56,340 nucleotides of DNA from Candidatus Rokuibacteriota bacterium (GTDB lineage Bacteria > Methylomirabilota > Methylomirabilia > Rokubacteriales > CSP1-6), in assembly GCA_003220675.1 (NCBI GenBank), contig QHTD01000063.1, forward strand, positions 1-56,340, read 5' to 3'. The translations under genes and the position numbers were made by a program. The notes under the pieces are model-generated. The model was not told the origin of the DNA, ran no database searches, and saw only the letters and a list, made by a program, of their open reading frames with translations. Position 1 is the stretch's first letter. Each line of letters starts with the position of its first letter. Positions 27,319-44,619 of this stretch are shown here, one piece after another.

Positions 27319-27963
27319 TCAGGGACCCGGCTGGACGAGCAGGGCTCGGATGTCGAGGAAGGCCTGGCGCTCGTCGAAGAGGGAGAGGCTATAGATCTCG
27401 CGGACGCGGCCCGCTCCATCGATCAGGTAGAGGCGTGCAGGGTGATCGATCTCGCCGGCCGGTAGGGGCTTCGTCCACTCGTCCCACGCCGCGAGCATCG
27501 GTCGCAGGGCGTCGCTCGCGTCCCGAAGGAACTTCCAGCCGCGCGGGTCGGCGCCGAATCCCTTCGCGTAGCGCGCCAGGGTCTCGGTGGTGTCCCGGTC
27601 GGGATCGACCGTGACCGAGACGAAGTTGACGCGCGAGGGAAAGAGCCCCGCCGCGGTCAGCCGCCGCTGCAGCACGGCCATTCGCTGGGTGACGAGGGGA
27701 CACGCGGACGGGCACGAGGTGTAGATGAACGCGAGCAGGACGATGCGTCCCGCGAAGTCCGTGAGGCTCACCGGGCGGCCCTCCGGATCGCCGAGGGTGA
27801 ATCGCGGGGCTCTGCCAATGACGCCGAGGCTCGGGTGGGTCGAGAGGAGGCGCGCTGCGCCGGCGCGCTGGGGAGCGTCGTGAGCGCGCGCAGGACGCGG
27901 CGCCACGGCGAGCAGCAGCGCCGCGACCAGGACGAGGCTGGCGAGCTGGCGCCCGCCGCGCAT
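27319..27963 (-). CDS. SCO1/SenC-family copper chaperone
   Basis: Signal peptide, FIYTSCPSACP (CxxxC), VTVDPDRDT, IDH, YLID. Confidence 0.92.
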   Translation of the reverse strand: MRGGRQLASLVLVAALLLAVAPRPARAHDAPQRAGAARLLSTHPSLGVIGRAPRFTLGDPEGRPVSLTDFAGRIVLLAFIYTSCPSACPLVTQRMAVLQRRLTAAGLFPSRVNFVSVTVDPDRDTTETLARYAKGFGADPRGWKFLRDASDALRPMLAAWDEWTKPLPAGEIDHPARLYLIDGAGRVREIYSLSLFDERQAFLDIRALLVQPGP

Positions 27964-27966
27964 GCG

Positions 27967-29178
27967 TCAGTAGAGGAGCATGTCGTGCGCCCGCGCCGGC
28001 CCCGTCGGGAGCTTGGTGAAGTCCACGTCGAAGAACGGATCCATCTTGAGCCGACCGTCCGGGCCGATGTGGACGAGCCGAACCCAGAAGTTTCCGGAGT
28101 AGTCCATCGTCGAGAGGAGCGAGTTCGTGACGTACATGCGCTTGCCGTCCATCGTCACGTGCATCATGTTCGGGGACACGCCGGGAACCACGGTGTCGTG
28201 GAGCCGAGGCCGGTCGGGGCGCGACACGTCCCACGCCTGGATCTCGCTCCGCATGAAGCAGGAGACGTAGAGGTAGCGGTCGTCCGGCGACTGGCGGAGA
28301 TCCGCGGGCAGGCACCCCTTGCCGAGGTCCGCCGCCTTCTTCGCCGTGAAGCTCCCTGCCTTCGTCTGCGCGAAGAACCAGATCGAGTCGCCGAGCGCCG
28401 AGTTGGTCCAGCCGTGCGTCGCCCCCGGCTTGAGGCTCCAGCGCACCTCGAGCGGGACCGGGTCGGTGACGAGCGTCTGGATCACCTTGCGCTCCTTGAA
28501 GTCCCAGACGAGCATCGTGTTGCCGCCATCCTTCATGTCCCACTGCGCGAGCGGCTTCATGTAGTTGCGGAGCGGCGTGAAGCTCGAGGTGATCATGCGG
28601 TTGATCTCGGGCTTCACGGCGACGTCGTACGCGTAGGGCGCGTTGTCCGGGTTCTTGAACACCCGGATGAGCTGGCCGTCGTTCGTGAACTCGGCCAGGC
28701 CCCCCGGCGGAGCCCCGTCGGCGGAGGACAGAAACGTGAGGAGCATGCGCCCGGGCAGCGCGTAGTACGTGTGGGGCCCGTGAAACCCGGTCAGCGCGCT
28801 GACGTCGTCGATGGTCTTGACGATCCTCGGCTTGGCGGGATCGGCGGCGACCTCCAGGATGAAGAGCCGTTTGGAGAGCAGGGTCCCCGCCCAGATCTTG
28901 GTCCGGTCGTCGGTGAAGCCCATGTGGTGCGGCTCGTTGCCCGCCGAGCCGAGATCCACCGTGTTGATGACGCGCCCGTAGCCGGGCGAGGCGAGGTTGA
29001 CGTCGATGACGGCGAGGAAATCGTTGTCCTTGGCGTCGGCATCGACCGAGTAGACGTAGAGGTACTTCTCGGGCGCCGCCAGGCGCTTCACGTAGGGGGA
29101 CAGGCACACTTCCGCGACGGCAACGCTCGCGGTGGCGATGACGGCGAGGAGAGCGAGGGAAAGCGTCCGGCGCCTCAT
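27967..29178 (-). CDS. Secreted SBP56 / methanethiol-oxidase-like beta-propeller protein
   Basis: Start ATG 29178 with AGGAGG SD; signal peptide; EVCLSPY, EPHHMGFTDDR, GPHTYYALPGRML, PLEVRW, DGKRMYVTNSL, AHDM. Confidence 0.88.
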   Translation of the reverse strand: MRRRTLSLALLAVIATASVAVAEVCLSPYVKRLAAPEKYLYVYSVDADAKDNDFLAVIDVNLASPGYGRVINTVDLGSAGNEPHHMGFTDDRTKIWAGTLLSKRLFILEVAADPAKPRIVKTIDDVSALTGFHGPHTYYALPGRMLLTFLSSADGAPPGGLAEFTNDGQLIRVFKNPDNAPYAYDVAVKPEINRMITSSFTPLRNYMKPLAQWDMKDGGNTMLVWDFKERKVIQTLVTDPVPLEVRWSLKPGATHGWTNSALGDSIWFFAQTKAGSFTAKKAADLGKGCLPADLRQSPDDRYLYVSCFMRSEIQAWDVSRPDRPRLHDTVVPGVSPNMMHVTMDGKRMYVTNSLLSTMDYSGNFWVRLVHIGPDGRLKMDPFFDVDFTKLPTGPARAHDMLLY

Positions 29179-29251
29179 GGAAATCCTCCTGGTTGACCGG
29201 ACCCTAGCACACGCGGGTGGTTCCAGCAACGCGGGGCGCCGCGCTGGCCGG

Positions 29252-29345: not shown

Positions 29346-30911
29346 ATGACCATGGGCCGATCGACGCCGTTCGAGGGCAGGCTGGCTCGCGCCGTCGTCG
29401 TGACGCTGCTCGTGTGCGTGGGGCTCGGCACGCCCACGTCGTCCCGCGCCGCGCCCGAGGGGCAGCTGACGTGGGGCGTCCACATCTCGCTCGCCCCGAC
29501 GTGGTTCGACCCCGCCGAGACCGCGGGGATCATCACGCCCTTCATGGTGCTCTACGCGCTCCACGACGCGCTGGTGAAGCCGATGCCCGGCAACCCGATG
29601 GCGCCCAGTCTCGCCGAGTCGTGGAGCGCCTCGCCCGACGGGCTCGTCTACGAGTTCGTCCTGCGCAAGGGCGTCAGGTTCCACACCGGCGACCCCGTGA
29701 CCGCCGAGGACGTCAAGTTCTCCCTCGAGCGCTACCGCGGCACGGCCGCCTCCTCCTTCAGGGAGCGCATCGCCGCCGTCGAGGTGATCGACCCCCAGCG
29801 CGTGCGCGTCCGTTTCAAGCAGCCGTGGCCCGACTTCATGACCTTCTACGGGACCCCGGCGACCGGGGCCGGCTGGATCGTGCCGAAGAAGTACGTCGAG
29901 AAAGTCGGCGACGACGGCTTCAAGAAGGCCCCGGTGGGAGCTGGCCCGTACCGGTTCGTCTCCTTCACGCCGGGCGTGGAGCTGGTGCTCGAAGCCTACG
30001 AGCAGTACTGGCGCAAGACCCCGAGCGTGAAGCGCCTGGTGTTCAAGGCGGTGCCGGACGAGTCGACGCGCCTGGCGATGCTCAAGCGCGGCGAGGCCGA
30101 CATCGTCTACTCGATCCGCGGCGCCCTGGCCGAGGAGCTCCAGCGGACGCCCGGGCTCACGCTCAAGCCCAACTACCCGCCCGCCACCTTCTGGCTCGTC
30201 TTCGTCGATCAGTGGGATGCGAAGTCGCCGTGGCACGACCGGCGAGTGCGCCTGGCCGTCAACCTGGCGATCGACCGAGCGGCGATCAACCAGGCCGAGA
30301 CCCTGGGCTTCTCGAAGATCAACCACAGCATCATTCCCTCGAGCTTCGACTTCTTCTGGCAGCCGCCCGCGTACGCGTACGATCCGGCCAGGGCCCGGCA
30401 GCTCCTCGCCGAGGCCGGCTACCCGAACGGCTTCGACGCCGGTGACTACTACTGCGACGTGTCCTACGCCAACCTCGCGGAGGCCGTCGTGAATTACCTG
30501 AAGGCGGTCGGCATCCGGGCCCAGCTCCGGCCGCTCGAGCGCGCGGCGTTCTTCGCCCAGTACCGGGAGAAGAAGCTCCGGAACATCATCCAGAGCGGCT
30601 CCGGGGCCTTCGGGAACACGGCGACCCGCCTCAAGGCGTTCGTCGCCGCCGCCGGCGCCTACGTCTACGGCAGCTATGCCGACGTCGACGGGCTCTTCCG
30701 CGAGCAGGCGAGCGAGATGGACCGGAAGAAGCGCGAGGCGACGCTCCAGCGGATCCAGCAGCTCATGCACGAGAAGGCGATGGTCGCGCCGATCTGGGAG
30801 CTCGCCTTCATCAATGGCCACGGGCCACGCGTGGAGGAGTCGGGCCTGACGCTCATCACCAACCACGCCTACTCCGCGCCGTACGAGGACCTGAGGCTCA
30901 AGCCGAGGTGA
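29346..30911 (+). CDS. Orphan ABC substrate-binding protein, family 5 (peptide/nickel type)
   Basis: Signal peptide; PSLAESW, FVLRKGVRFH.G..TAEDVKFS, PVGAGPY, YDPARARQLLAEAGY; no adjacent permease. Confidence 0.93.
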   Translation: MTMGRSTPFEGRLARAVVVTLLVCVGLGTPTSSRAAPEGQLTWGVHISLAPTWFDPAETAGIITPFMVLYALHDALVKPMPGNPMAPSLAESWSASPDGLVYEFVLRKGVRFHTGDPVTAEDVKFSLERYRGTAASSFRERIAAVEVIDPQRVRVRFKQPWPDFMTFYGTPATGAGWIVPKKYVEKVGDDGFKKAPVGAGPYRFVSFTPGVELVLEAYEQYWRKTPSVKRLVFKAVPDESTRLAMLKRGEADIVYSIRGALAEELQRTPGLTLKPNYPPATFWLVFVDQWDAKSPWHDRRVRLAVNLAIDRAAINQAETLGFSKINHSIIPSSFDFFWQPPAYAYDPARARQLLAEAGYPNGFDAGDYYCDVSYANLAEAVVNYLKAVGIRAQLRPLERAAFFAQYREKKLRNIIQSGSGAFGNTATRLKAFVAAAGAYVYGSYADVDGLFREQASEMDRKKREATLQRIQQLMHEKAMVAPIWELAFINGHGPRVEESGLTLITNHAYSAPYEDLRLKPR

Positions 30912-30927
30912 GAACGCAACGACCGTC

Positions 30928-33162
30928 ATGAAACTCACGATTCGTCTCGTCGGGGCCATCTGGCTCTCGGTGCTGATCGTCATCGGGGGGTTCGCGTTCC
31001 TGCAGATCCGCGAGGAGCGCGAGCGGCTCGTCGACGACCTGAAGCGCCGCGCGGTCCTCGTGGGCGAGGGGCTCAAGGAGGCGATCGAGCCCCAGGTGGC
31101 GCGCGACTCGACGGCGGGCGTCGAGCGAATATTGAAGAAGTTCGGGACGGCGCGGCGCGGGATCGCGGTGTACGACCGGTTCGCCGGCCTGATGGTCGCG
31201 ACGCCCGACATCGCGCCGTCCCTCCCACCGTCGCTCCCCGAAGTGACCGACGCGGTCGCCAACGACGTCGTGAGCCAGGGCTTTCGCGTCGTGGGTGTCC
31301 GGCGGGCGTACGTGTACGCGACGCCCCTCACGCGGGACGACCGGGCGGTGGGTGCGCTCGTGGTGATCCTCGACGCCGCGCACCTGGAGGGCGCGGCGTG
31401 GAACCTCTGGTGGAGCAACGCGCTCCGGTTCCTCGCTTTGGCGCTCGTCGTCTCGCTCATCGCGCTGGTCGTCGTGCGGAGCAGCGTCACGCAGCCGATG
31501 GCGAAGATGTCGGAGTGGACGAAGAGCCTCCGCGCCGGGCGCTACGTGCCGCCACCCGACGTGCCCGACGCCAACGTCTTCGGCCCGCTGGCGCGCGAGG
31601 TGGCGGGGCTCGCGCGGAGCATGCAGCGGGCCCGGGCGGCGGCGGAGCAGGAGGCCGCGCTGCGCCTGGTGGGCGAGTCCATCTGGACGGAGGAGCGCCT
31701 CAAGCAGTTCGTCAACCTCCGCCTCGCCGGCCGGCCGCTCGTCGTCGTGTCCAACCGCGAACCGGTGAGCCACGTGCGGAAGGGCGGGCGGATCCAGACT
31801 CTGACGCCCGCCAGCGGGCTCGTGACCGCGATGGATCCGATGATGCGCGCGTGCGGCGGCGTGTGGGTCGCTCACGGGAGCGGCGATGCCGACCGGGAGA
31901 CCGCGGACGCGCGCGGGCGGCTCGGCGTGCCGGAGGACGACCCGCGCTACACGCTGCGCCGGGTGTGGCTGACGAAGGAGGAGGAGCACGGCTACTACTA
32001 CGGGTTCGCGAACGAGGGGCTCTGGCCGCTCTGCCACATCGTGCACACGCGGCCCGTGTTCCGGCCCGACGACTGGGCCCACTACCTCGCGGCGAACCGC
32101 ACGTTTGCCGAGACGCTGCTCGACGAGATCCGCGACGCCGAGGAGCCGCTCGTCCTGATCCAGGACTACCACTTCGCGCCGCTGCCCGCGCTCATCAAGG
32201 CGGAGCGGCCCGACGCCCGTGTGGCGATCTTCTGGCACATCCCGTGGCCGAACTCCGAGGCCTTCGCGATCTGCCCCTGGCAGCCGGAGCTGCTCGCCGG
32301 GATGCTGGGCGCCGACCTCGTCGGCTTCCACACGCAGTACTACTGCAACAACTTCCTCGAGACGGTCGACCGCACGCTCGAGACGCGGATTGACTGGGAG
32401 CGCTTCACGGTCACCCGCGGCGAGCGCGTGACCGCCGTCAAGCCCTTTCCGATCAGCGTCGCGCCCGGGTTCGTCGACGATCCGCCCCAGCGCACGCGCG
32501 AGGAGCTCCTGCGCGAGCTCGGGGTCTCGGCCGAGTTCCTCGGCGTCGGCGTCGAGCGGGTGGACTACACGAAGGGGCTCCCCGAGCGCTTCCGCGCGCT
32601 CCGGTGGTTCTTCGAGCGCTACCCGGAGTACCGCGGGCGCGTCGTGTTCGTGCAGCTCGCCGCGCCGAGCCGCTCCACGATCAAGCGCTACGCGGAGCTC
32701 GCGCTGGAGGTCGAGCAGACCGTCCGCGAGGTGAACGAGGCGCTCGGGACCGTGAGCTGGCGGCCGATCCTGTACCTCGCCCGCCACCACGAGCACCGCG
32801 AGATCTGGTCCTACTACCGTCACGCGGACTTCTGCATGGTCACCTCGCTCCACGACGGCATGAACCTCGTCGCCAAGGAGTTCGTCTCTGTTCGCGACGA
32901 CGAGGACGGCGTGCTCATCTTGAGCCGGTTCGCCGGCGCCTCCCAAGAGCTACGGGACGCGCTGATCATCAACCCGTATGACCTCGCTGGCGCCGCCGAG
33001 GCGATCCGCACGGCGCTGGAGATGCCGAAGGAGGAGCGGCACGCGCGGATGACACGGATGCGCTACGTCGTGAGCGAGCACAACATCTACCGCTGGGCCG
33101 GGCTCCTCCTGAGCGAGCTGTCCAGAATCCCGGTCGAGACACCGGGAGTCAAGACGTCCTGA
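30928..33162 (+). CDS. otsA: Trehalose-6-phosphate synthase (GT20) fused to an N-terminal TM-extracytoplasmic sensor-TM-HAMP module
   Basis: Two TM helices around a ~140-aa domain, a HAMP-like segment (QPMAKM...PLAREVAGLARSM), then intact OtsA motifs SNREP, SGLV, YYGFANEGLWPLCH, QDYH, HIPWP, RVDYTKG, DGMNLVAKE, NPYD. Confidence 0.93.
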   Translation: MKLTIRLVGAIWLSVLIVIGGFAFLQIREERERLVDDLKRRAVLVGEGLKEAIEPQVARDSTAGVERILKKFGTARRGIAVYDRFAGLMVATPDIAPSLPPSLPEVTDAVANDVVSQGFRVVGVRRAYVYATPLTRDDRAVGALVVILDAAHLEGAAWNLWWSNALRFLALALVVSLIALVVVRSSVTQPMAKMSEWTKSLRAGRYVPPPDVPDANVFGPLAREVAGLARSMQRARAAAEQEAALRLVGESIWTEERLKQFVNLRLAGRPLVVVSNREPVSHVRKGGRIQTLTPASGLVTAMDPMMRACGGVWVAHGSGDADRETADARGRLGVPEDDPRYTLRRVWLTKEEEHGYYYGFANEGLWPLCHIVHTRPVFRPDDWAHYLAANRTFAETLLDEIRDAEEPLVLIQDYHFAPLPALIKAERPDARVAIFWHIPWPNSEAFAICPWQPELLAGMLGADLVGFHTQYYCNNFLETVDRTLETRIDWERFTVTRGERVTAVKPFPISVAPGFVDDPPQRTREELLRELGVSAEFLGVGVERVDYTKGLPERFRALRWFFERYPEYRGRVVFVQLAAPSRSTIKRYAELALEVEQTVREVNEALGTVSWRPILYLARHHEHREIWSYYRHADFCMVTSLHDGMNLVAKEFVSVRDDEDGVLILSRFAGASQELRDALIINPYDLAGAAEAIRTALEMPKEERHARMTRMRYVVSEHNIYRWAGLLLSELSRIPVETPGVKTS

Positions 33163-33164
33163 CC

Positions 33165-33938
33165 GTGCCGCCTCGTCTCCTCGCGCGTCTCGAGCGTGAG
33201 CTCGCGCGCGGCGCCGGTCTCGTGGCGATCCTCGACTACGACGGGACGTTGACCCCGATCGTCCCGTCGCCGCGGGCGGCGGTCCTCGCGCCGTCGGTGA
33301 GGACCACCCTCCTGCGTCTGGCAGCGAGCGACCGCGCCCGCCTGGCGATCCTCTCGGGGCGCGCGCTGGCAGATGTCCGAGCCAGGGTCGCGATCGACAA
33401 CGTCATCTACGGTGGCTGTCACGGCCTCGAGATCCAGGGCAGGGGCCTCGCCTTCCGCCATCCGCGGGTCCGCGCGGCGCGGATCGTCGCGGCGCGGCGC
33501 ACGCTCGCCGCCGGGGCCGAGGCGATCCCGGGCTCGCGCGTCGAGTTCAAGGGGCTCGCGGTGAGCCTCCACTACCGGCGCGTGGCGCTCTCACGGCGCC
33601 GCGCGGTGCGGGACCTCGCGACGCGTGTGCTGCGCCGCGTGCCGGATCTGGCGCTCATCTCCGGGCGTGAGGTCTTCGACTTCGTGCCGCGGGTCCGCTG
33701 GAGCAAGGGCGAGGCCGCCCGCTGGATCGCCCGCCGCGCGGGACGGACGCTGCGACGCGGCAGGCCGGTCGTCGTCTACGCGGGCGACGACGCCACCGAC
33801 GAGGCGGCGTTCGCCGCGCTGAAGGGGCGCGCGCTGACCGTCCGGGTCGGCGACGGACCGAGCGTCGCGGAGTACCGTGTCCGTGATGTCCGGGCGATGC
33901 AGGCGGTGCTCCGGCGCCTCGCCGTCGCCCTCGGCTGA
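33165..33938 (+). CDS. otsB: Trehalose-6-phosphate phosphatase
   Basis: HAD motifs DYDGTLTPI, SGR, HGLE, LHYR, KG, GDDATDE. Confidence 0.93.
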   Translation: MPPRLLARLERELARGAGLVAILDYDGTLTPIVPSPRAAVLAPSVRTTLLRLAASDRARLAILSGRALADVRARVAIDNVIYGGCHGLEIQGRGLAFRHPRVRAARIVAARRTLAAGAEAIPGSRVEFKGLAVSLHYRRVALSRRRAVRDLATRVLRRVPDLALISGREVFDFVPRVRWSKGEAARWIARRAGRTLRRGRPVVVYAGDDATDEAAFAALKGRALTVRVGDGPSVAEYRVRDVRAMQAVLRRLAVALG

Positions 33939-33963
33939 CACGGTCCCGTCGACAGGGTACGAT
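33935..33963 (+). promoter_or_regulatory. Internal promoter CTGACA-N17-TACGAT
   Basis: CTGACA 33935-33940, TACGAT 33958-33963, ATG 9 nt later with no SD. Confidence 0.55.
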
Positions 33964-33972
33964 CTCCCCACG

Positions 33973-34638
33973 ATGCGTACGGCCGCGCGCCCGTTCCTCT
34001 TCGTGGGTTGCGTCGAGCTGCGACAAACGCTCGACTCGCACGCGCGCGACGCACGCGAGCTGATGCACCGACTGGCGGAAGTGCCGGCCGACTCCGTGTT
34101 TTTCCACACCTTCGGCTACTTCCTCCGCCACCGGCCGTTCACGACGGCGTACGGCAACGACTTCGCCCGGTGGGCTGCGGTCGAGATCGGCGACCGCACG
34201 CTCGCCGAGCGCCTGGCCGTCGTGGATCCGTTCGCGTTCGCGACCGTCGAGGCGCTGCGCGAGCACCTCGTGACGATTCTCCAGGACCACCTGCGGCTGC
34301 ACGGCGGCGACCCCCGCGTCGAGTTCGACCGGGCGTTCCATTTCCAGCGCTCGCACATCGTCGAGGTGGGGCTCGGGCTCGCCGCGACGACGCTCGCGGA
34401 GTTCCGCGCGGGGCTCGCGGCCGCCGACGCGAGCGCCATCTATCTGCACACGGTCGAGGCGCGGGCTCGAGGCGGCCGCCGCGCCGGCGACTTCGCCGAG
34501 TGGCTCCGGGCGGCGCTCGAGCTGCCGACGCTCGCGGAGCGGTTCCAGCGCGTCGACCCGTACCTGACGACGCTGGAGCGGGTCCGCGGGCGGCTCTTGA
34601 GCCTCGTCGATCGGGCGCTGGAGGAGGAGCCGGCGTGA
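33973..34638 (+). CDS. DUF5752-like protein (TreT-associated, OrfY-like)
   Basis: Start ATG 33973; internally repeated motifs PF.F..C, SVFFHT..NDFARW and SAIYLH..EAR..DFAEW, ..DPY..TLE..R; typical position before a TreT-like GT. Confidence 0.75.
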   Translation: MRTAARPFLFVGCVELRQTLDSHARDARELMHRLAEVPADSVFFHTFGYFLRHRPFTTAYGNDFARWAAVEIGDRTLAERLAVVDPFAFATVEALREHLVTILQDHLRLHGGDPRVEFDRAFHFQRSHIVEVGLGLAATTLAEFRAGLAAADASAIYLHTVEARARGGRRAGDFAEWLRAALELPTLAERFQRVDPYLTTLERVRGRLLSLVDRALEEEPA

Positions 34639-35825
34639 GCCGGATCGACGACTACCGTCAGGTGGCTCCGCAGGGCGCGGTGGACATGATACTGAAATTG
34701 GCCGACCGCGTGCGGGGGCGACGGTTCCTCAACGTCACCGGCGGGCGGCTGGGCGGCGGCGCGGCCGAGATCCTCCGCGAGGCTGTCCCGATCCTCAGCG
34801 ACCTGGGTGTCGACACGAGCTGGGAGATTACGGGGGGCGATTCCCCCTACTATGCGACCGCGCGCGCGCTTCAGGCGACGCTCGAGGGCGCGGAGCGTGT
34901 GCTCAGCGACGAAGGCCTCGCCCGCTGGGTCGAGGTGAACCGGGTCAATGCCAAGAAGCTCATGCTCGACGCCGACCTCGTCCTCGTCCACGACGTCCAG
35001 CCCGCGAGCCTGGTGACCCACCGCACCGACGGCCGGTGGGTCTGGCGGTGCCACTTCGACTGCTCGGCCGCCCGCCCGGCCGCCTGGTCCTTCTTCCGGC
35101 GGTTCGCCGATCAGTATGATGCGGCAGTTTTCTCGCTGCCGGGGTTCGAGTGCCGGCTGGGCATCCCGATGTACGTCATCCAGCCGTCCATCGACCCGCT
35201 GTCCGAGAAGAACCGGGAGCTGTCGCCGCGCGAAGTCGCGGACATCCTGGCTGCGCTCCGCGTGGTTCCGGACAAGCCGCTGCTGGTCCAGATCGGGCCG
35301 TTCACGCCGGGGTACGATCCGATAGGCGTCGTGAACGCTTACCGGTTGGTGGAGAAGCACCACGACGTGAGGCTCGTCCTGGCGGGCATGGCCGACGACG
35401 AGCCCGAGCGGGTCGAGATCCGGGACGAGCTCCTGCAGGCCGCCCGCGAGGACCCCGACGTCGTCGTGCTCGAGCTGCCGGCGGACGCGCACCGTCAGAT
35501 CAACGCGCTTCAGCGGGCGGCCACGATAGTCTTGCAGAAGTCGGTGCGCGCGGGGTTCGAACTCGGCCCCGCCGAGGCGATGTGGAAGGGCAAGCCCGTG
35601 ATCGGTGGCTACGCGGGCGGCCTCGCGCAGCAGATCATTCCCGACGTGACCGGCTACATGGTCCACTCCGTGGACGGCGCCGCGTTCCGGATCCGCCACC
35701 TCCTCAACAATCCAGAGCTGATCCCCCGGATGGGCGCTGCCGGCCGGGAGCACGTGCGGCGCTCGCTCCTCATCACGCGCCACCTGATGGACTTTCTGGC
35801 GCTCATGATCCACCTCGCGCAATGA
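34635..35825 (+). CDS. TreT-like GT4 glycosyltransferase with degenerate donor-binding motifs
   Basis: Start GTG 34635; GGGAAE, HDVQP, WRCH, PSIDPLSEKN, INALQR, EAMWKGKPVIGG; but QIGPFTPGYDP and RAGFEL in place of SRFDxxKDP and REGFGL. Confidence 0.85.
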   Translation: MSRIDDYRQVAPQGAVDMILKLADRVRGRRFLNVTGGRLGGGAAEILREAVPILSDLGVDTSWEITGGDSPYYATARALQATLEGAERVLSDEGLARWVEVNRVNAKKLMLDADLVLVHDVQPASLVTHRTDGRWVWRCHFDCSAARPAAWSFFRRFADQYDAAVFSLPGFECRLGIPMYVIQPSIDPLSEKNRELSPREVADILAALRVVPDKPLLVQIGPFTPGYDPIGVVNAYRLVEKHHDVRLVLAGMADDEPERVEIRDELLQAAREDPDVVVLELPADAHRQINALQRAATIVLQKSVRAGFELGPAEAMWKGKPVIGGYAGGLAQQIIPDVTGYMVHSVDGAAFRIRHLLNNPELIPRMGAAGREHVRRSLLITRHLMDFLALMIHLAQ

Positions 35826-37081
35826 CGGACCGCCTCCAGGCCCCCGCGTTCCCGGCCGAGGTCGAGCGTCAGCTCGAGGGCGCCTCACCGTGCGAGATCG
35901 CCCTCGGCGTGCTCACCTACAACAACGCGACGACCGTGCCGACAGTCGTGGAGGTCGTCCGCACAGGCCTCGAGCGTCACTTCGCCGGCATTCCCGCCGT
36001 GCTGATCAACGCCGACGCCGGCTCGTCGGACGCGACGCCGGATCTTCTCGCGGCGGCCGGGCTCCCCCTCGTCCGGGCGCGTCACGAGACACCGCTCGCC
36101 CAGCGCATCGCCGTGCCCTTCCACGGCGTGCCCGGGCGTGGCGCCGCGCTCCGTCTGACCTTCGCCGTCGCGCGGCGGCTCGGCGCGCGCGCACTCGTGC
36201 TGCTGGAGGCCGACGTGACCTCCGCGGGCGCCGAGTGGCTCAGGCACCTGCTCCGTCCCGTGCTCGAGCAGAAAGCGGACCTCGTGGTCCCGGTGTACGC
36301 GCGCCACCGTTACGACGGCACGCTCACGAACCTCGTCCTGGCGCCGCTGGTCCGTGCGCTCTTCGGGCGCCGGCTGCATCAGCCGCTGGCGGGGGCCGCG
36401 GCGCTCTCCGCCCGGCTGCTCGATCGTCTGCTCGACGACCCGCGATGGCCGGCGCCCGGACAGAACCAGACGGACCTCTGGATCGAGGCGACCGCGATCG
36501 TCGACGGCTTCGCCGTCTGGGAGGCGTGGCTCGGCCGACGGCGCGCGGAATCGCGGACCCGCACGGCGGACCTGCCGACGATGGTGGCCCAGGCGGTCGG
36601 CGGACTCTTCGCCGTGATGGGCCGGTACGACGACCTGTGGCTCGAGATCCGCGGCAGCGAGCCCGTCCCCGCCACGGATGCGCCGGTCATCCCGTCGGTG
36701 GAGCCCGTGGCCCTCGACGTCGACCGCATGGTGGACGCGTTCCGGCGAGGGCTCCGGGATCTCGGCGCGATCTGGGAGCACATCCTGGCGCCCGAAACGC
36801 TCGGCGACGTCCTGAGCCTCGACACGGCCAGCCCGGCGCGGCTCGCCTTCCCGGACGAGTTGTGGGCGCGCGTGGTCTACGACTTCGCGCTCGGCTACCA
36901 CTACAACGTCGTGTACCGCGACCACCTGCTGCGCTCGCTCGTCCCGCTCTACCTCGGCCGCACCGCCGCGTTCGTCGTGGCGACGCGCGACCGCGACGCC
37001 GGGGCCGCCGAGGCCCACCTGGACGCGGTTGGCGCGGCCTTCGAGCGGCACAAACGCTACCTCGTCGAGCGGTGGCGATGA
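35822..37081 (+). CDS. GT-A (GT2 / glucosyl- or mannosyl-phosphoglycerate synthase-like) glycosyltransferase with degenerate motifs
   Basis: Start ATG 35822; [48 protein letters not shown]. Confidence 0.8.
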
Positions 37082-37112
37082 CGATCATCGAAGGGGCGCG
37101 GGCCTCGCGACC

Positions 37113-38801
<1,689 letters not shown>

Positions 38802-38891: not shown

Positions 38892-39551
38892 ATGATGAAC
38901 CAACGGATCTGTGCATTCGCCGTCTCGATGCTGGTGCCCGCGGCGATCGTCGCCGCGTGTGCGAAGCGTACCGTCACGGTGGACGTCTCCGCTCCGCCAC
39001 GGGCCGCCGCGCCCGCACCACCGCGCTCGGGTGGAGCCGCGGCGACGGAGTCGCCAGTCACGCCGCTCACGGAGGTCACGACGCGGCCGGGCACGGCGTC
39101 GCCCGGCACGACGTCGCCCGGCACGTCGTCGCCCGGCGCGGCGTCGCCCGGCACGTCGGAGCCGCGCGCGCCGCTCGGGTCGGCGCGTCCGGCCCCCGCC
39201 GAGTTCGCCGCGCGGGCCGAGCTCGAGGACATCCACTTCGACTTCGACCGCCACGACATCCGCCCGGGCGACGCGAGGATCCTCGACGTCAGCGCGGCCT
39301 GGCTTCAGGAGAACCCGGGCACGCTCGTCCTCATCGAGGGCCACTGCGACGAGCGTGGCACGGACGCCTACAACCTGGCCCTCGGCGACCGTCGCGCGAA
39401 GGCCGCGATGGACTACCTCGTCTCGCGCGGCATCCAGGCCGAGCGGATGAACACGCTGAGTTACGGAAAGGAGAAGCCCGTGTGCCAGGAGCACACCGAG
39501 GCGTGCTGGGCCAAGAACCGGCACGCCCACTTCCTCGTGAAGGCGCGCTGA
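38892..39551 (+). CDS. pal: Peptidoglycan-associated lipoprotein (OmpA-like C-terminal domain)
   Basis: Lipobox VAAC; IHFDFDR, IEGHCDERGT..YN.ALGDRRA, SYGKEKP.C.....C...NR. Confidence 0.88.
   Translation: MMNQRICAFAVSMLVPAAIVAACAKRTVTVDVSAPPRAAAPAPPRSGGAAATESPVTPLTEVTTRPGTASPGTTSPGTSSPGAASPGTSEPRAPLGSARPAPAEFAARAELEDIHFDFDRHDIRPGDARILDVSAAWLQENPGTLVLIEGHCDERGTDAYNLALGDRRAKAAMDYLVSRGIQAERMNTLSYGKEKPVCQEHTEACWAKNRHAHFLVKAR
39087..39161 (+). repeat. Five tandem 15-bp repeats encoding PG[T/A][A/T/S]S-like units in the Pal linker
   Basis: ccgggcacggcgtcg / cccggcacgacgtcg / cccggcacgtcgtcg / cccggcgcggcgtcg / cccggcacgtcggag. Confidence 0.9.
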
Positions 39552-39566
39552 CTCTAGGTCCGGGCG

Positions 39567-40832
39567 GTGCGCCGCGTCCTCCTCGTGCTCTGGGTCGCCG
39601 CCCTGACCGGCTGTGCCGGGAGCGCGCCCGAGCGCGGCGCCATCACGCTGGTGTTCAAGTACGCGCGCATCCTCGGGCCGGCGGATCCTCTGCCGGGGCT
39701 CTTGCGCGAGTTCGAGGCGGCGCATCCGAACGTCCGCGTCAAGGGCGAGTCGCTGCCGTGGACGTCAGACGAGCAGCACCAGTTCTACGTCATCAACCTC
39801 GAGGGGAGGAGCCCCGGCTTCGACGTGATGATGCTCGACCTCATCTGGGTGCCCGAGTTCGCGCGCGCCGGCTGGCTGCTCGACCTCACGCCGCGTCTCG
39901 GCCCGGGCGAGCTCCGGCCGTACTTCCCGAGCACGGTCGAGGCGGCGACGTACGACGGCCGCGTCTTCGCGCTGCCCTGGATCATGAACGTCGGGCTCCT
40001 CTACTACCGCGCGGACCTCCTCCGGAAGTACGGGCTCGAGCCGCCGGAGACCTTCGAAGCGCTCGTGCGGCAGGTGCGCCGGATCCGGGAGGGCGAGCGC
40101 GACCCCGCGCTCGACGGCTACCTGTGGCAGGCGAAGCAGTACGAGGGGCTCGTGGTGAACGTTCTCGAATCGTTCTGGGCGAACGGGACGCGGCTGCTCG
40201 CGGCCGACGACACGGTGTTCCCCGAGCCCGAGCGGGCCGCCGAGGCGCTCGCGTTCCTCCGCGGGCTCATCGCGTCGGGCGTGAGCCCGGCCTGGACGAC
40301 GGCGGCGGACGAGGAGCTCTCGCGGCGCGCCTTCGGCGACGGCCACGCGATCTTCCTCCGGAACTGGCCGTACGCAATGGACCTGTTCCAGGCGCGGGAC
40401 TCCAGGGTGCGCGGCCGCGTCGGGATCGCGCCGCTGCCGCGGCTCGCGCGCGGCCCGCGGGGCGCGGGCTCGACCGGCGGCGCGCACCTCGGCGTGTCCC
40501 GGCGGAGCCGCCACCCGGACCTCGCGGTCGGGCTGGTGCGCTTCCTCACGAGCGAGCGCGCCCAGAAAGCGCTCGCGCGCGGCGCGGCGCTCTCCCCAAC
40601 GCGCGAGGCGCTCTACGACGACCCCGAGCTCGTGCGGAGCCGCCCCGACCTCCCGGCGCTCCGCGCGCTCATGCGCGCGGGCCGCCCGCGTCCCGTCACG
40701 CCCTACTACCTCTTGCTCTCCGCGACGGTCCAGCCCGAGTTCTCGGCGGTCCTGGTCGGCGTCAAGCCGCCAGGGCGCGCGATCGGCGACGCGCGTCTCA
40801 GGCTCACCCACTTCTTCGGGGCGCTCCGGTGA
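39567..40832 (+). CDS. Sugar ABC transporter substrate-binding lipoprotein (trehalose/maltose-binding type)
   Basis: Lipobox LTGC; DLIWVPEFA, LLYYRADLL, QYEGL, FLRNWPY, GGAHL, RPVTPYY. Confidence 0.88.
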   Translation: MRRVLLVLWVAALTGCAGSAPERGAITLVFKYARILGPADPLPGLLREFEAAHPNVRVKGESLPWTSDEQHQFYVINLEGRSPGFDVMMLDLIWVPEFARAGWLLDLTPRLGPGELRPYFPSTVEAATYDGRVFALPWIMNVGLLYYRADLLRKYGLEPPETFEALVRQVRRIREGERDPALDGYLWQAKQYEGLVVNVLESFWANGTRLLAADDTVFPEPERAAEALAFLRGLIASGVSPAWTTAADEELSRRAFGDGHAIFLRNWPYAMDLFQARDSRVRGRVGIAPLPRLARGPRGAGSTGGAHLGVSRRSRHPDLAVGLVRFLTSERAQKALARGAALSPTREALYDDPELVRSRPDLPALRALMRAGRPRPVTPYYLLLSATVQPEFSAVLVGVKPPGRAIGDARLRLTHFFGALR

Positions 40833-41701
40833 CCGGGCGCGAGCGCGCAGACCGGCGACAGGCGCTTCGCTTGCTGGCGCCGACGCTCCTGGCGCTCGGC
40901 GCGCTCACGGTCTACCCGGGATTCTGGGTGGTGTGGCTCTCGCTCCAGCATCGGGTCCCGATCTTCCACGTGGCGCGCTTCGCCGGACTCGACAACTACG
41001 TGTTCCTCGCGAGCGACCCGCGCTTCTGGAACGCCGCGCGCACGACGGTGGTCTTCACCGCCCTGTCGGTGGCGCTCGAGCTCGCGCTGGGCGTCACGGT
41101 CGCGCTCGCGCTCCACCGCCAGCGGCGCGGCCGGCGGCTCGGGCTCTCGCTCCTTCTCCTGGCGTGGGCGATGCCGTCGGTGGTGACCGCGAAGCTCTAC
41201 GAGTGGCTCTACCATCCCGCAGCCGGGCTCGTCAGCGTGCTGCTCGGCGGTCACGCGTTGAACTGGCTTGGCGACCCGTACCTGGCGCTCCCGGCGGTCA
41301 TCCTCGCCGACGTGTGGCGCACCATGCCCTTCGTCGCGATCCTCTGCTACGCGCGCCTGGTGACGATTCCCGCGGAGGTCTACGAGGCGGCTCAGGTGGA
41401 CGGCGCCGGCCGGCTGGCGACGCTCGGCCGCATCACGCTGCCGCTGCTGGGCCGCATCGTCATGTTAGCGCTCCTCCTGCGGATGCTCGACGCGCTGCGC
41501 GCGTTCGATATCATGTTTGTGCTCACGGGCGGTGGTCCGGCGGGTACCACCGAGACACTCACGGTCTACGCCTACCGGAGCCTCTTCCAGATGCTCCAGC
41601 TCGGCTTCGGCTCGGCGGTCAGCGTGGTCGTCTTTGCGCTCGTGATGGGCGTCGCGTGGGCGTACCTCCGGCTGCTCCGCGCACGCGCGGTCGTGGCGTG
41701 A
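40829..41701 (+). CDS. Sugar ABC transporter permease (MalF/SugA type)
   Basis: Start GTG 40829; GLDNY, ADVWRTMPF, YEAAQVDGA, LDALRAFD, LTGGGP. Confidence 0.92.
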   Translation: MTGRERADRRQALRLLAPTLLALGALTVYPGFWVVWLSLQHRVPIFHVARFAGLDNYVFLASDPRFWNAARTTVVFTALSVALELALGVTVALALHRQRRGRRLGLSLLLLAWAMPSVVTAKLYEWLYHPAAGLVSVLLGGHALNWLGDPYLALPAVILADVWRTMPFVAILCYARLVTIPAEVYEAAQVDGAGRLATLGRITLPLLGRIVMLALLLRMLDALRAFDIMFVLTGGGPAGTTETLTVYAYRSLFQMLQLGFGSAVSVVVFALVMGVAWAYLRLLRARAVVA

Positions 41702-42519
41702 GACGCCCGGAACAGACCCTTGTCGACGTGCTGGTCCTGCTGGCGCTCGGCGCGTATGCGGTGCCGTTCTTCTGGCAGCTCCTGACGTCGTTCAAGCCCG
41801 AGACCGAGCTGCTGCGCGTCCCGCCGCTCCTGCCGAGCCGGCTGACGCTCGCGCATTATAGCGTCGTGCTCGAGCAGAGCCTGATCCCCCGTGCGCTCGT
41901 GAACAGCGTGGGGATCGCGACGCTGACGACCCTCCTGGCGCTCGCGGTGGGGGTGCCCGGCGCGTACGCGATCGCGAGGCTCCCGCTGCCCGGCAAGGGC
42001 GCCCTCCTCCTCGCGATCGTCGCGAGCACGGCGTTTCCGCAGATCGCGACCGTGAGCCCGCTCTACCTCCTGATGCGCACGATCGGCCTCCGAGACACCT
42101 GGGCGGGCCTCGTCCTCGTCCACTCCTCGTTCGCGCTGCCGCTGACGATCTGGCTCCTCGTCGGGTTCATCCGCGAGATTCCCCGCGAGGCCGAGGAGGC
42201 TGCGTCCGTCGACGGCGCCGGCACGCTCGCGACGCTCCGCTGGGTCGTGGCGCCCCGGCTCGCGCCCGGGATCGCCTCGACCGCGCTCCTGACGTTCCTG
42301 TTCAGCTGGAACGAGTTCCTCTTCGCGTACACGTTCACGGCCTCGGAGGCGAGCCGGACGATTCCGGTCGCGCTCGCGCTCTTCCCCGGCGTCTACGAGG
42401 TGCCCTGGGGCGACATCGCCGCCGCGTCCATGCTGGCGAGCCTGCCGCCCGTGCTCATCGTGATCGGGCTCCAGCGGTTCCTGGTCCGCGGGCTCGTCGC
42501 CGGCGCACTCAAAGAGTAG
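41698..42519 (+). CDS. Sugar ABC transporter permease (MalG/SugB type)
   Basis: Start GTG 41698; TSFKP, AYAIARL, EEAASVDGA, SWNEFLFA. Confidence 0.92.
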   Translation: MRRPEQTLVDVLVLLALGAYAVPFFWQLLTSFKPETELLRVPPLLPSRLTLAHYSVVLEQSLIPRALVNSVGIATLTTLLALAVGVPGAYAIARLPLPGKGALLLAIVASTAFPQIATVSPLYLLMRTIGLRDTWAGLVLVHSSFALPLTIWLLVGFIREIPREAEEAASVDGAGTLATLRWVVAPRLAPGIASTALLTFLFSWNEFLFAYTFTASEASRTIPVALALFPGVYEVPWGDIAAASMLASLPPVLIVIGLQRFLVRGLVAGALKE

Positions 42520-43818: not shown

Positions 43819-43911
43819 CGCGTGGCGCGGACCTGATGCTTGGTCTCGTGGTGTCGCCGCGGTGGCGACGCAAGCGGCGCGGCTCGGCGCGCGCCCGGGG
43901 AGGGCCGGTCG

Positions 43912-44619
43912 ATGGCTGATTTCTGGCGCGATCTCATCTGGACCGCCGTCCGCGACACGACGAACACGCTGAGCGTGGTGATGCCTGGTGTCCTCGCGAT
44001 GCTCGCGCTCGTGGTGCTGGGCGCCGTGCTCGGCTGGATCGGCGGCGCACTCGTCAGGCGTCTCGCCCACGCCGGGGACCTCGACCGGCGGAGCCGAGAG
44101 TGGGGCCTGACGCACGCGCTCGCGCGTGCGGGCGTCTACAGGACGCCGTCGGAGCTTCTGCGGCTCGTCGTGTTCTGGGGCGTCTTCGTGATCTTCGCGA
44201 CCATGGGGATCGACGCCCTCGCGATTCCCGGCGCGCCGGGCGCCACGGGGATGCTGATGTACCTGCTTCCACGCGCGCTCTCCGCGCTGCTGATCCTCGT
44301 GGTCGGCTGGCTTGCGGCGAACTTCCTCGGGCAAGCGGTGCTGATCGCCGCGGTCAACGCGAGCCTGCCCGAGGCGCGGCTCCTGGCCCGCGCGGCCCGA
44401 TGGCTCGTGCTGCTGTTCGCGTTCGCGACAGCGCTCACCGAGATCGGGATCGGCCGCGACATGGTTCTGGTCGCCTTCGGCATCCTCTTCGGCGGGCTCG
44501 TGCTCGCCCTGGCGCTCGCCTTCGGCCTCGGCGGTCGTCACCTCGCCCGCCACATCCTGGAGCGCGGGCGGCTGCGCGAGCGGGTGCCCTCGGACCGCGA
44601 GACCATCAACCACATCTGA
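43912..44619 (+). CDS. CmpX-like / MscS-associated conserved TM-helix membrane protein
   Basis: Start ATG 43912; repeated P..L..L..L..GW helices, YLLPR, AFG...ALALAFGLGGR. Confidence 0.8.
   Translation: MADFWRDLIWTAVRDTTNTLSVVMPGVLAMLALVVLGAVLGWIGGALVRRLAHAGDLDRRSREWGLTHALARAGVYRTPSELLRLVVFWGVFVIFATMGIDALAIPGAPGATGMLMYLLPRALSALLILVVGWLAANFLGQAVLIAAVNASLPEARLLARAARWLVLLFAFATALTEIGIGRDMVLVAFGILFGGLVLALALAFGLGGRHLARHILERGRLRERVPSDRETINHI

Follow-up and report, generated by a model that had tools for sequence, protein, structure and literature searches.

We analyzed a window of 56,340 nucleotides, which is a whole 56-kb contig (QHTD01000063.1) of a Candidatus Rokuibacteriota genome assembly (GCA_003220675.1; 4.08 Mb, 437 contigs, 96.9% complete), and describe here a gene at positions 30928..33162 of the forward strand that encodes a candidate receptor-type trehalose-6-phosphate (T6P) synthase. 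The gene is one open reading frame (ORF) with an ATG start, 744 amino acids long, the stop codon being included in the coordinates, and it is the sole Pfam GT20 match in its own 4.08-Mb genome. The encoded protein is composed, in this order, of a first transmembrane helix (TM1), a 139-residue WalK-like single-Cache domain, a second transmembrane helix (TM2), a HAMP domain, a 34-residue helical linker and a complete GT20/OtsA domain. The domain order is thus that of the input half of a sensor kinase joined in frame to an intact OtsA, and the join is located where the dimerisation and phosphotransfer helices of a kinase would normally start. A preliminary description of the gene had proposed about 265 additional N-terminal residues ahead of GT20, a single reading frame shared with it, an extracytoplasmic domain of about 140 residues, and a layout of TM, sensor, TM, HAMP-like segment and OtsA. 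All of these elements were located: the Pfam GT20 match starts at residue 271 and is preceded by approximately 270 residues, 139 residues separate TM1 from TM2, and a single ORF occupies exactly the interval given above.

Domain architecture of the fused synthase

The catalytic domain (31738..33123, forward strand; residues 271-732) matches Pfam Glyco_transf_20 with an E-value of 8e-119 (397.8 bits against a gathering score of 32.5), covering profile positions 3-472 of 473, and solved Tps1/OtsA proteins are matched by phmmer with an E-value of 6e-75. The identity of the GT20 part to E. coli OtsA is 31%. An AlphaFold2 (AF2) model was built for the full-length synthase, with a mean predicted local distance difference test score (pLDDT) of 84.1. 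The GT-B fold superposes on OtsA with Z-scores of 43.7 (5jio) and 43.6 (1uqu_A) and a root-mean-square deviation (rmsd) of 2.1-2.2 Å over 442-453 residues, and VIA-align to M. thermoresistibile and E. coli OtsA and fungal Tps1 gave Z-scores of 43-44 and rmsd of 2.0-2.5 Å over 438-456 residues.

The catalytic motifs of GT20 had been described as intact, and the substrate-binding residues agree with this view. The available text of PMC1769515 gives eleven such residues for E. coli OtsA, of which 10 are identical in the window synthase (R277, G297, Y357, W366, D413, H437, R544, R582, D643 and E651). The residue named 'Trp40' in that text is not mappable, as its number points to a Gly flanked by two Trp. 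Of this E. coli pair, the former corresponds to the invariant W313 and the latter to H316. R277 is the counterpart of Arg9, the glucose-6-phosphate-binding residue of E. coli OtsA, and K549 matches Lys267 of the same enzyme. The NCBIfam equivalogs of OtsA score under their trusted cut-offs (430.1 vs 564.85 for TIGR02400 and 481.8 vs 634 for PRK14501); nonetheless, they are the best-scoring NCBIfam models, and the cut-off is a naming threshold for close orthologues. On these scores the synthase is a divergent GT20 subfamily, and its OtsA domain is predicted to be catalytically intact from the conserved residues and the fold.

A Kyte-Doolittle scan of the synthase revealed exactly two strongly hydrophobic 19-residue windows, with no other above 1.5. 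TM1 (30946..31002, forward strand; residues 7-25, mean 2.51) lies within a predicted helix spanning residues 2-58, and TM2 (31420..31476, forward strand; residues 165-183, mean 2.79) within a predicted helix at 151-202. This two-pass topology places the GT20 domain in the cytoplasm. By Pfam the cytoplasmic part is wholly GT20, the HisKA/DHp and HATPase_c domains of a kinase being absent from it.

The segment between the two helices (31003..31419, forward strand; residues 26-164) has a WalK-like single-Cache/PDC fold. A second AF2 model, of residues 1-275, was built on an alignment of 30 homologues (A1) and has a mean pLDDT of 84.2, with values of about 90 in the sensor; A1, a further alignment (A2) and both AF2 models include one row (L008) from the unpublished genome G011. 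In this model helix 2-58 represents TM1 extending outside the membrane and is followed by a short helix and by sheet strands at 77-83, 88-91, 116-122, 125-136 and 139-149; helix 151-202 represents TM2 continuing into the cytoplasm, and a 12-residue loop (203-214) and a helix (215-249) come after it. The long N-terminal helix and the antiparallel-sheet alpha/beta core between two transmembrane helices are the features of a Cache/PDC sensor, and the three strings noted earlier as Cache-like, GIAVYD (78-83), YVYATPL (127-133) and VGAL (141-144), are all found in predicted strands.

Structure comparison detects this sensor fold, for which a check had been advised, and sequence profiles point to it less uniformly. 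Foldseek of the 1-275 model against PDB returned 49 matches with E-values of 1e-3 or lower, mostly to Cache/PDC sensors. The best match is the full-length B. subtilis WalK (9a5d_A; E 9e-12, TMq 0.74, 264 columns), followed by crystals of the S. aureus WalK extracellular domain (4ywz, 7dud and 5is1; E 1.4e-6 to 1.8e-6, TMt 0.71-0.74) and, further down, by DctB, CitA, KinD, Mlp24 and Tlp3. The A1 profile matches the WalK extracellular domain by sequence as well, with E-values of 3.5e-5 to 2.9e-4 over profile positions 34-153, the best being 5is1 (E 3.5e-5, positions 35-153). Among the 30 A1 homologues, Pfam sCache_3_2 matches eight (best E 1.5e-5) and Cache_WalK three, all below or near threshold, and the ESM Atlas neighbours of residues 1-270 include clusters with sCache_3_2 and HAMP.

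The HAMP domain, comprising the helices AS1 and AS2 and their connector (31480..31635, forward strand; residues ~185-236), was delineated by alignment onto the Pfam HAMP of related kinases. Weaker matches of the N-terminal module in related genomes are open frames of approximately 470-600 amino acids, and all three of those fetched encode HAMP-HisKA-HATPase_c kinases (Pfam HAMP E-values of 1e-15, 8e-13 and 4e-10). By BLASTP, residues 1-269 of the synthase align with residues 21-288 of the kinase L043 (E 2e-14), which has its Pfam HAMP at 207-258 (E 1.3e-15); hhalign against the kinase L044, with a Pfam HAMP at 187-236, gave a probability of 98.9% and an E-value of 1.6e-17. In both kinases the module residues ~185-236 fall on the Pfam HAMP, directly after TM2. 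The alignment spans the region from TM1 to the end of HAMP, and the N-terminal module is homologous to kinase input halves. NCBIfam HK_WalK also matches synthase residues 124-243 (E 8e-7). Within the own genome we searched 12,313 ORFs, each of at least 150 amino acids: a sub-profile of the HAMP region (residues 184-250) found one non-self match, a kinase (E 0.0029) matched at 392-448 with its Pfam HAMP at 389-438, and a sub-profile of the sensor (residues 28-160) returned the self match only.

The conserved residues of this region follow the HAMP pattern. P190 and E224 are invariant in all 30 A1 sequences. They stand at what we take to be the positions of the HAMP signature Pro in AS1 and the signature Glu at the start of AS2. 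Conserved hydrophobic residues recur with heptad (3-4) spacing at 187/191/194/198/201 and at 218/221/225/228/232/235/239, so that a helix-connector-helix of about 50 residues with heptad hydrophobics and a conserved Pro and Glu is present. The Af1503 HAMP chains were matched to the A1 profile at positions 188-237 with E-values of 0.18-0.54, which are not significant alone. We conclude that residues ~185-236 represent, by homology, a divergent but genuine HAMP domain, and the segment first described as HAMP-like was in this way detected through its alignment to Pfam-verified kinase HAMPs.

Distribution of the fusion

A kinase 5' half could have been joined to otsA by misassembly or by a frameshift, and the fragmentation of the assembly that holds the window (437 contigs) would leave room for such an artefact of assembly or gene calling. 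Against it, the single frame, the start codon and the junction are repeated in many separate assemblies. In all 11 relative loci a single open frame contains both the module and the GT20 motifs, and in 26 of 27 further loci the module abuts GT20 within a few bases; among these 27 loci, L021 is cut by a contig end and L027 has a partial GT20 match. In 17 of the 17 loci checked, the gene keeps its ATG start and first residues, and an in-frame stop lies 2-39 codons ahead of that start. Contigs carrying the fusion include some of 0.36-2.1 Mb, and of 201 genomes sampled from this phylum, 126 contain the module (E ≤ 1e-20), including 69 of the 104 high-quality ones. An artefact is hence extremely improbable, and an assembly chimera, which the preliminary description had named as a possibility, was rejected on the recurrence of the fusion in many independent assemblies, long contigs among them. 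The fetched loci are partly redundant (L026 is the same as L039, and L014 the same as L004 and L046), and the genome tallies include the unpublished genomes G011, G086, G122 and G162 as well as G234 and G263 in the second sample, with no claim resting on these alone.

Most of the module matches in the phylum are open frames of approximately 740-800 amino acids. GT20 was found at E ≤ 1e-30 in 147 of the 201 sampled phylum genomes; compared with the 126 genomes that possess the module, this count implies that most GT20 genes in the phylum have the long form. The public records of 17 related loci are titled Candidatus Rokubacteria, Rokuibacteriota or Methylomirabilia, except that one of the 17 is titled Binatia. 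The latter locus (L024 in genome G206, 'Candidatus Binatia bacterium') has two long-form genes that are 64-66% identical in the module, and its NCBI title disagrees with its placement by the genome collection in the phylum of the window genome. The second phylum sample, which was centred on this genome, gave the same places as the first.

Four genomes (G118, G197, G079 and G196) possess a long GT20 gene (~752-757 amino acids) together with a short one (~508-638 amino acids), the short one scoring higher against Pfam GT20. Long and short GT20 genes look like distinct subfamilies able to coexist. In two further genomes (G040:C10:1547268-1549342 and G143:C19:276147-278338) the module is split over two or three frames beside an intact GT20, and these cases are either frameshifted pseudogenes or assembly errors.

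On a larger scale, a search of 1.84 billion representatives yielded 708 clusters with the module at E ≤ 1e-3. A Pfam scan of 10 module representatives found GT20 after the module in eight of them. Fifty-eight representatives extend beyond the W-T motif of the linker by 30 residues or more, and 48 of these enter the GT20 start motif; no other recognisable output domain follows the module among the 58. The 10 representatives without the GT20 start are rich in Arg, Pro and Gly and look like frameshifted or chimeric metagenome calls. The module identity between the lineages that keep it is only 27-37%. The relatives of one distant member (P0031) are 64-78% identical to it and 750-790 amino acids long, and their NCBI source names are Acidobacteriia, Terriglobia, Blastocatellia and Acidiferrales; the presence of the family in Acidobacteriota rests on these source names and on ESM Atlas cluster taxa. 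Judged by this distribution, the fusion is ancient and widespread.

The trehalose gene island

The fused gene heads a putative trehalose island (33165-38801). The first gene downstream, otsB (33165..33938, forward strand), encodes a T6P phosphatase (Pfam Trehalose_PPase E 2e-35; 139.6 bits against NCBIfam TIGR00685, whose cut-off of 68.05 is passed) and starts 3 nt after the synthase stop. In 19 of 27 related loci, too, otsB is the next gene after the fused one. This pairing bears on the product of the synthase. If GT20 formed glucosylglycerol-phosphate or another sugar-phosphate instead of T6P, the receptor would control a different solute or glycoconjugate. Such a product would be in line with the sub-threshold scores of all the NCBIfam equivalogs (GgpS TIGR02398 reaches 283 vs 569), with H316 in place of the second Trp of the E. 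coli W-x-x-W segment, and with an ESM Atlas cluster of similar long proteins that carries the automatic name 'putative Glucosylglycerol-phosphate synthase'. We regard it as very unlikely, given a T6P phosphatase gene next to the synthase, OtsA models that score far above GgpS, the identity of every mappable glucose-6-phosphate and UDP-glucose contact to E. coli OtsA, and OtsA/Tps1 as the closest structures.

Next in the island are a DUF5752 protein and a TreT-like GT4 glycosyltransferase (33877..35825, forward strand, starts approximate; Pfam DUF5752 E 3e-54, and TreT_GT1 E 3e-35 with Glycos_transf_1). The TreT-like gene scores 294.8 bits against NCBIfam TreT, under the cut-off of 775. This gene pair adjoins the fused gene in 12 of the 27 loci, being downstream in nine and upstream in three; the downstream arrangement is that of close relatives and the upstream one that of distant relatives (L031, L034 and L035). 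DUF5752 may be a partner of TreT-type enzymes. Its listed start overlaps otsB by 62 nt, and relatives match from residue 4-36, mostly from ~25-36; translation therefore probably begins downstream of the listed position.

The pair is followed by a weak glucosyl-3-phosphoglycerate-synthase-like protein (NCBIfam E 3e-10, below cut-off) and by TreS, a maltose alpha-D-glucosyltransferase/trehalose synthase (37029..38801, forward strand; 908.6 bits vs 678.35 for TIGR02456, Pfam Alpha-amylase and Malt_amylase_C). Up to three routes to trehalose are thus encoded side by side. It can be speculated that the bulk osmolyte is supplied by the TreS and TreT-like routes and that the fused synthase is a one-component receptor whose T6P output is an intracellular signal, as T6P acts as a signal in plants and fungi; we hold this to be a doubtful possibility at best.

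Beyond TreS lie an OmpA-family protein, a family-1 sugar-binding protein and an ABC permease (38892-42519), which may constitute a disaccharide uptake system tied to the island. After this sugar ABC transporter comes a 259-residue ORF (43840-44619) with weak similarity to mechanosensitive channels (Pfam MS_channel_1st_1 E 6e-5; 55 bits against a cut-off of 100 for NCBIfam msc). Its location approximately 10 kb downstream of the synthase recalls the msc gene of the T. tenax trehalose operon, as presented in the available text of PMC3634074. On the other side of the fused gene are a peptide-type binding protein (29346-30911) and, upstream of it, the region 27319-29229 (reverse strand), in which a homologue of the 56-kDa selenium-binding protein SBP56 (E 4e-59) adjoins a SCO1/SenC protein.

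Proposed coupling of the sensor to T6P synthesis

The HAMP domain is connected to GT20 by a conserved output linker (31636..31737, forward strand; residues 237-270), which consists of the continuation of the AS2 helix, a short break and a helix with the motif W253-T254-x-x-R257-L258. The best-conserved parts of the N-terminal module are AS2 and this linker. Mean pairwise identities in A1 and A2, respectively, are 46% and 58% for the linker and 41% and 55% for AS2, compared with 30% and 42% for the sensor and 20% and 34% for the HAMP connector. The distance from E224 to W253 equals 29 residues in 26 of the 30 A1 sequences and in 23 of 26 A2 sequences, and that from W253 to R277 equals 24 residues in 24 of 26. 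The length of the HAMP connector, by contrast, ranges between 32 and 37 residues. W253 is invariant, and A235, E242, A243, R246, T254, R257 and L258 are at least 90% conserved. The helix with W253-L258 is not present in the solved OtsA structures, which align from model residue 268-271 onward. We do not claim an S-helix 'ERT' identity for the W-T-x-E-R-L motif, whose residue order differs. The conservation of AS2 and the linker, together with the near-fixed spacing, argues for signal coupling rather than tethering, and the pattern favours a register-dependent signalling helix over a passive tether.

We therefore consider the protein, with a probability of about 0.6, to be a receptor-type T6P synthase in which an extracytoplasmic or membrane cue acts through HAMP to set the activity. 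Several observations weigh against this interpretation. Pfam searches of residues 1-270, 1-175 and 156-270 at E-values up to 10 found no family, neither Cache nor HAMP; PF00672 (HAMP) had no match on the synthase at the same limit, and it matched only six of the 30 homologues, all below the gathering score (best E 0.004). A phmmer search of the N-terminal module against PDB sequences, again at E up to 10, found no match, and the top Foldseek match, 9a5d_A, is an integrative model rather than a purely experimental structure. The near-invariant sensor residues across the family are only structural (L38, P133 and G142), with no common ligand pocket evident. The AF2 pLDDT falls below 50 at residues 241-251, inside the linker, where a flexible tether is possible. 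Finally, short GT20 genes (frames of ~493-640 amino acids) occur in the same phylum, with both forms in a few genomes, and since such short forms exist, the enzyme does not need the module.

The low model confidence in the linker, the missed Pfam models, the lack of family-wide conserved pocket residues and the short forms that work without the module would all suit a protein in which the former kinase input no longer signals and serves only to hold OtsA against the cytoplasmic side of the membrane. Trehalose synthesis would then be placed near transporters, channels or envelope lipids, and the activity would be constitutive or substrate-controlled. For such anchoring, however, one transmembrane helix would suffice and a folded sensor of 139 residues would be superfluous. 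The invariance of the HAMP signature Pro and Glu, a linker of near-fixed length with AS2 better conserved than the remaining module, and the retention of the whole module despite an identity of only 27-37% between lineages likewise speak against a membrane tether only, and we consider that alternative, the chief one, rather unlikely.

Regulation of the synthase by its sensor is plausible, and we infer the following route for it. By analogy with other HAMP proteins, the synthase would act as a dimer. A complex prediction for two copies of the 275-residue module scored 0.34, 0.36 and 0.37, where the mark is 0.42 and each of three controls scored 0.00; this result tips the balance on dimerisation in neither direction. 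A cue sensed on the outer side of the membrane or within it would alter the packing of HAMP, and the conserved, fixed-length linker would pass the change on to OtsA, where it would reach the first strand of the N-terminal Rossmann half, the strand with R277. T6P synthesis, and with OtsB trehalose synthesis, would in this way be raised or lowered without a phosphorelay or transcription. Since the synthase is located in a trehalose gene island, an osmotic, desiccation or envelope-related cue is suggested.

With the soluble OtsA/Tps1 proteins (E. coli 1gz5/1uqt/1uqu, M. thermoresistibile 5jio and Candida Tps1 5hut) the window protein shares the GT-B fold, the substrate residues and the pairing with otsB; however, the solved OtsA/Tps1 lack membrane segments, sensor and HAMP, and the window synthase has 267-270 extra N-terminal residues. 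With WalK (YycG) and other sCache-HAMP kinases it shares the order of TM1, single-Cache, TM2 and HAMP, as seen in fold and profile matches, but it has a glycosyltransferase output in place of HisKA/HATPase_c, and hence no phosphorelay or response regulator. HAMP-linked receptor enzymes are known among membrane adenylyl cyclases, diguanylate cyclases and PP2C phosphatases that have a TM-sensor-TM-HAMP input. They follow the same design, in which a transmembrane sensor, HAMP and an enzyme in the cytoplasm form a signalling device within one protein, but those enzymes form or remove dedicated signalling molecules or phosphoryl groups, whereas the output here is a GT-B enzyme of central metabolism and compatible-solute synthesis. 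We know of no HAMP-regulated GT-B enzyme, and none was found in our full-text literature searches.

That a prokaryotic T6P synthase can be controlled post-translationally has a precedent in the TPSP-GT-MSC system of T. tenax, in which, according to the available text of PMC3634074, T6P synthase is activated when it forms a complex with a soluble glycosyltransferase encoded apart from it. The T. tenax synthase described there is linked genetically to a GT4-type glycosyltransferase and a mechanosensitive channel, which in the window have counterparts in the TreT-like GT4 and the weak msc-like ORF. It is fused to a phosphatase, whereas the window synthase is fused to a membrane sensor.

The preliminary description knew of no biochemical characterisation of such a fusion, and our search of the full-text literature (subscription journals and supplements lying outside it) agrees, having found no description of a membrane-bound or HAMP-linked T6P synthase; PMC6064768 proved not to be pertinent. 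The architecture itself is already flagged by the automatic annotation of JGI, which names many relatives 'trehalose-6-phosphate synthase/HAMP domain-containing protein', and it is thus not unseen. What would be new is the type of output, a T6P synthase, among HAMP-linked receptor enzymes.

Soil bacteria rely on trehalose as a main protectant when they dry out or suffer osmotic shock, and its synthesis in bacteria is usually described as being governed by transcription and by the supply of substrates. Direct switching of the committed enzyme by a membrane sensor would allow a response within seconds with no gene expression required, and HAMP signalling would gain a new output class. The fused synthase would also offer a simple test system for the conversion of HAMP motion into enzyme activity, with a product that is easily assayed. 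Were the doubtful messenger role of T6P true, two abundant soil phyla would use a sugar phosphate as a second messenger made by a receptor, and a GT-B glycosyltransferase would join the short list of HAMP outputs. The family appears to be common in Methylomirabilota/Rokubacteria and, judged by source names, also in Acidobacteriota. Both phyla are abundant in soil but poorly cultured, and the way they respond to drought bears on soil carbon cycling.

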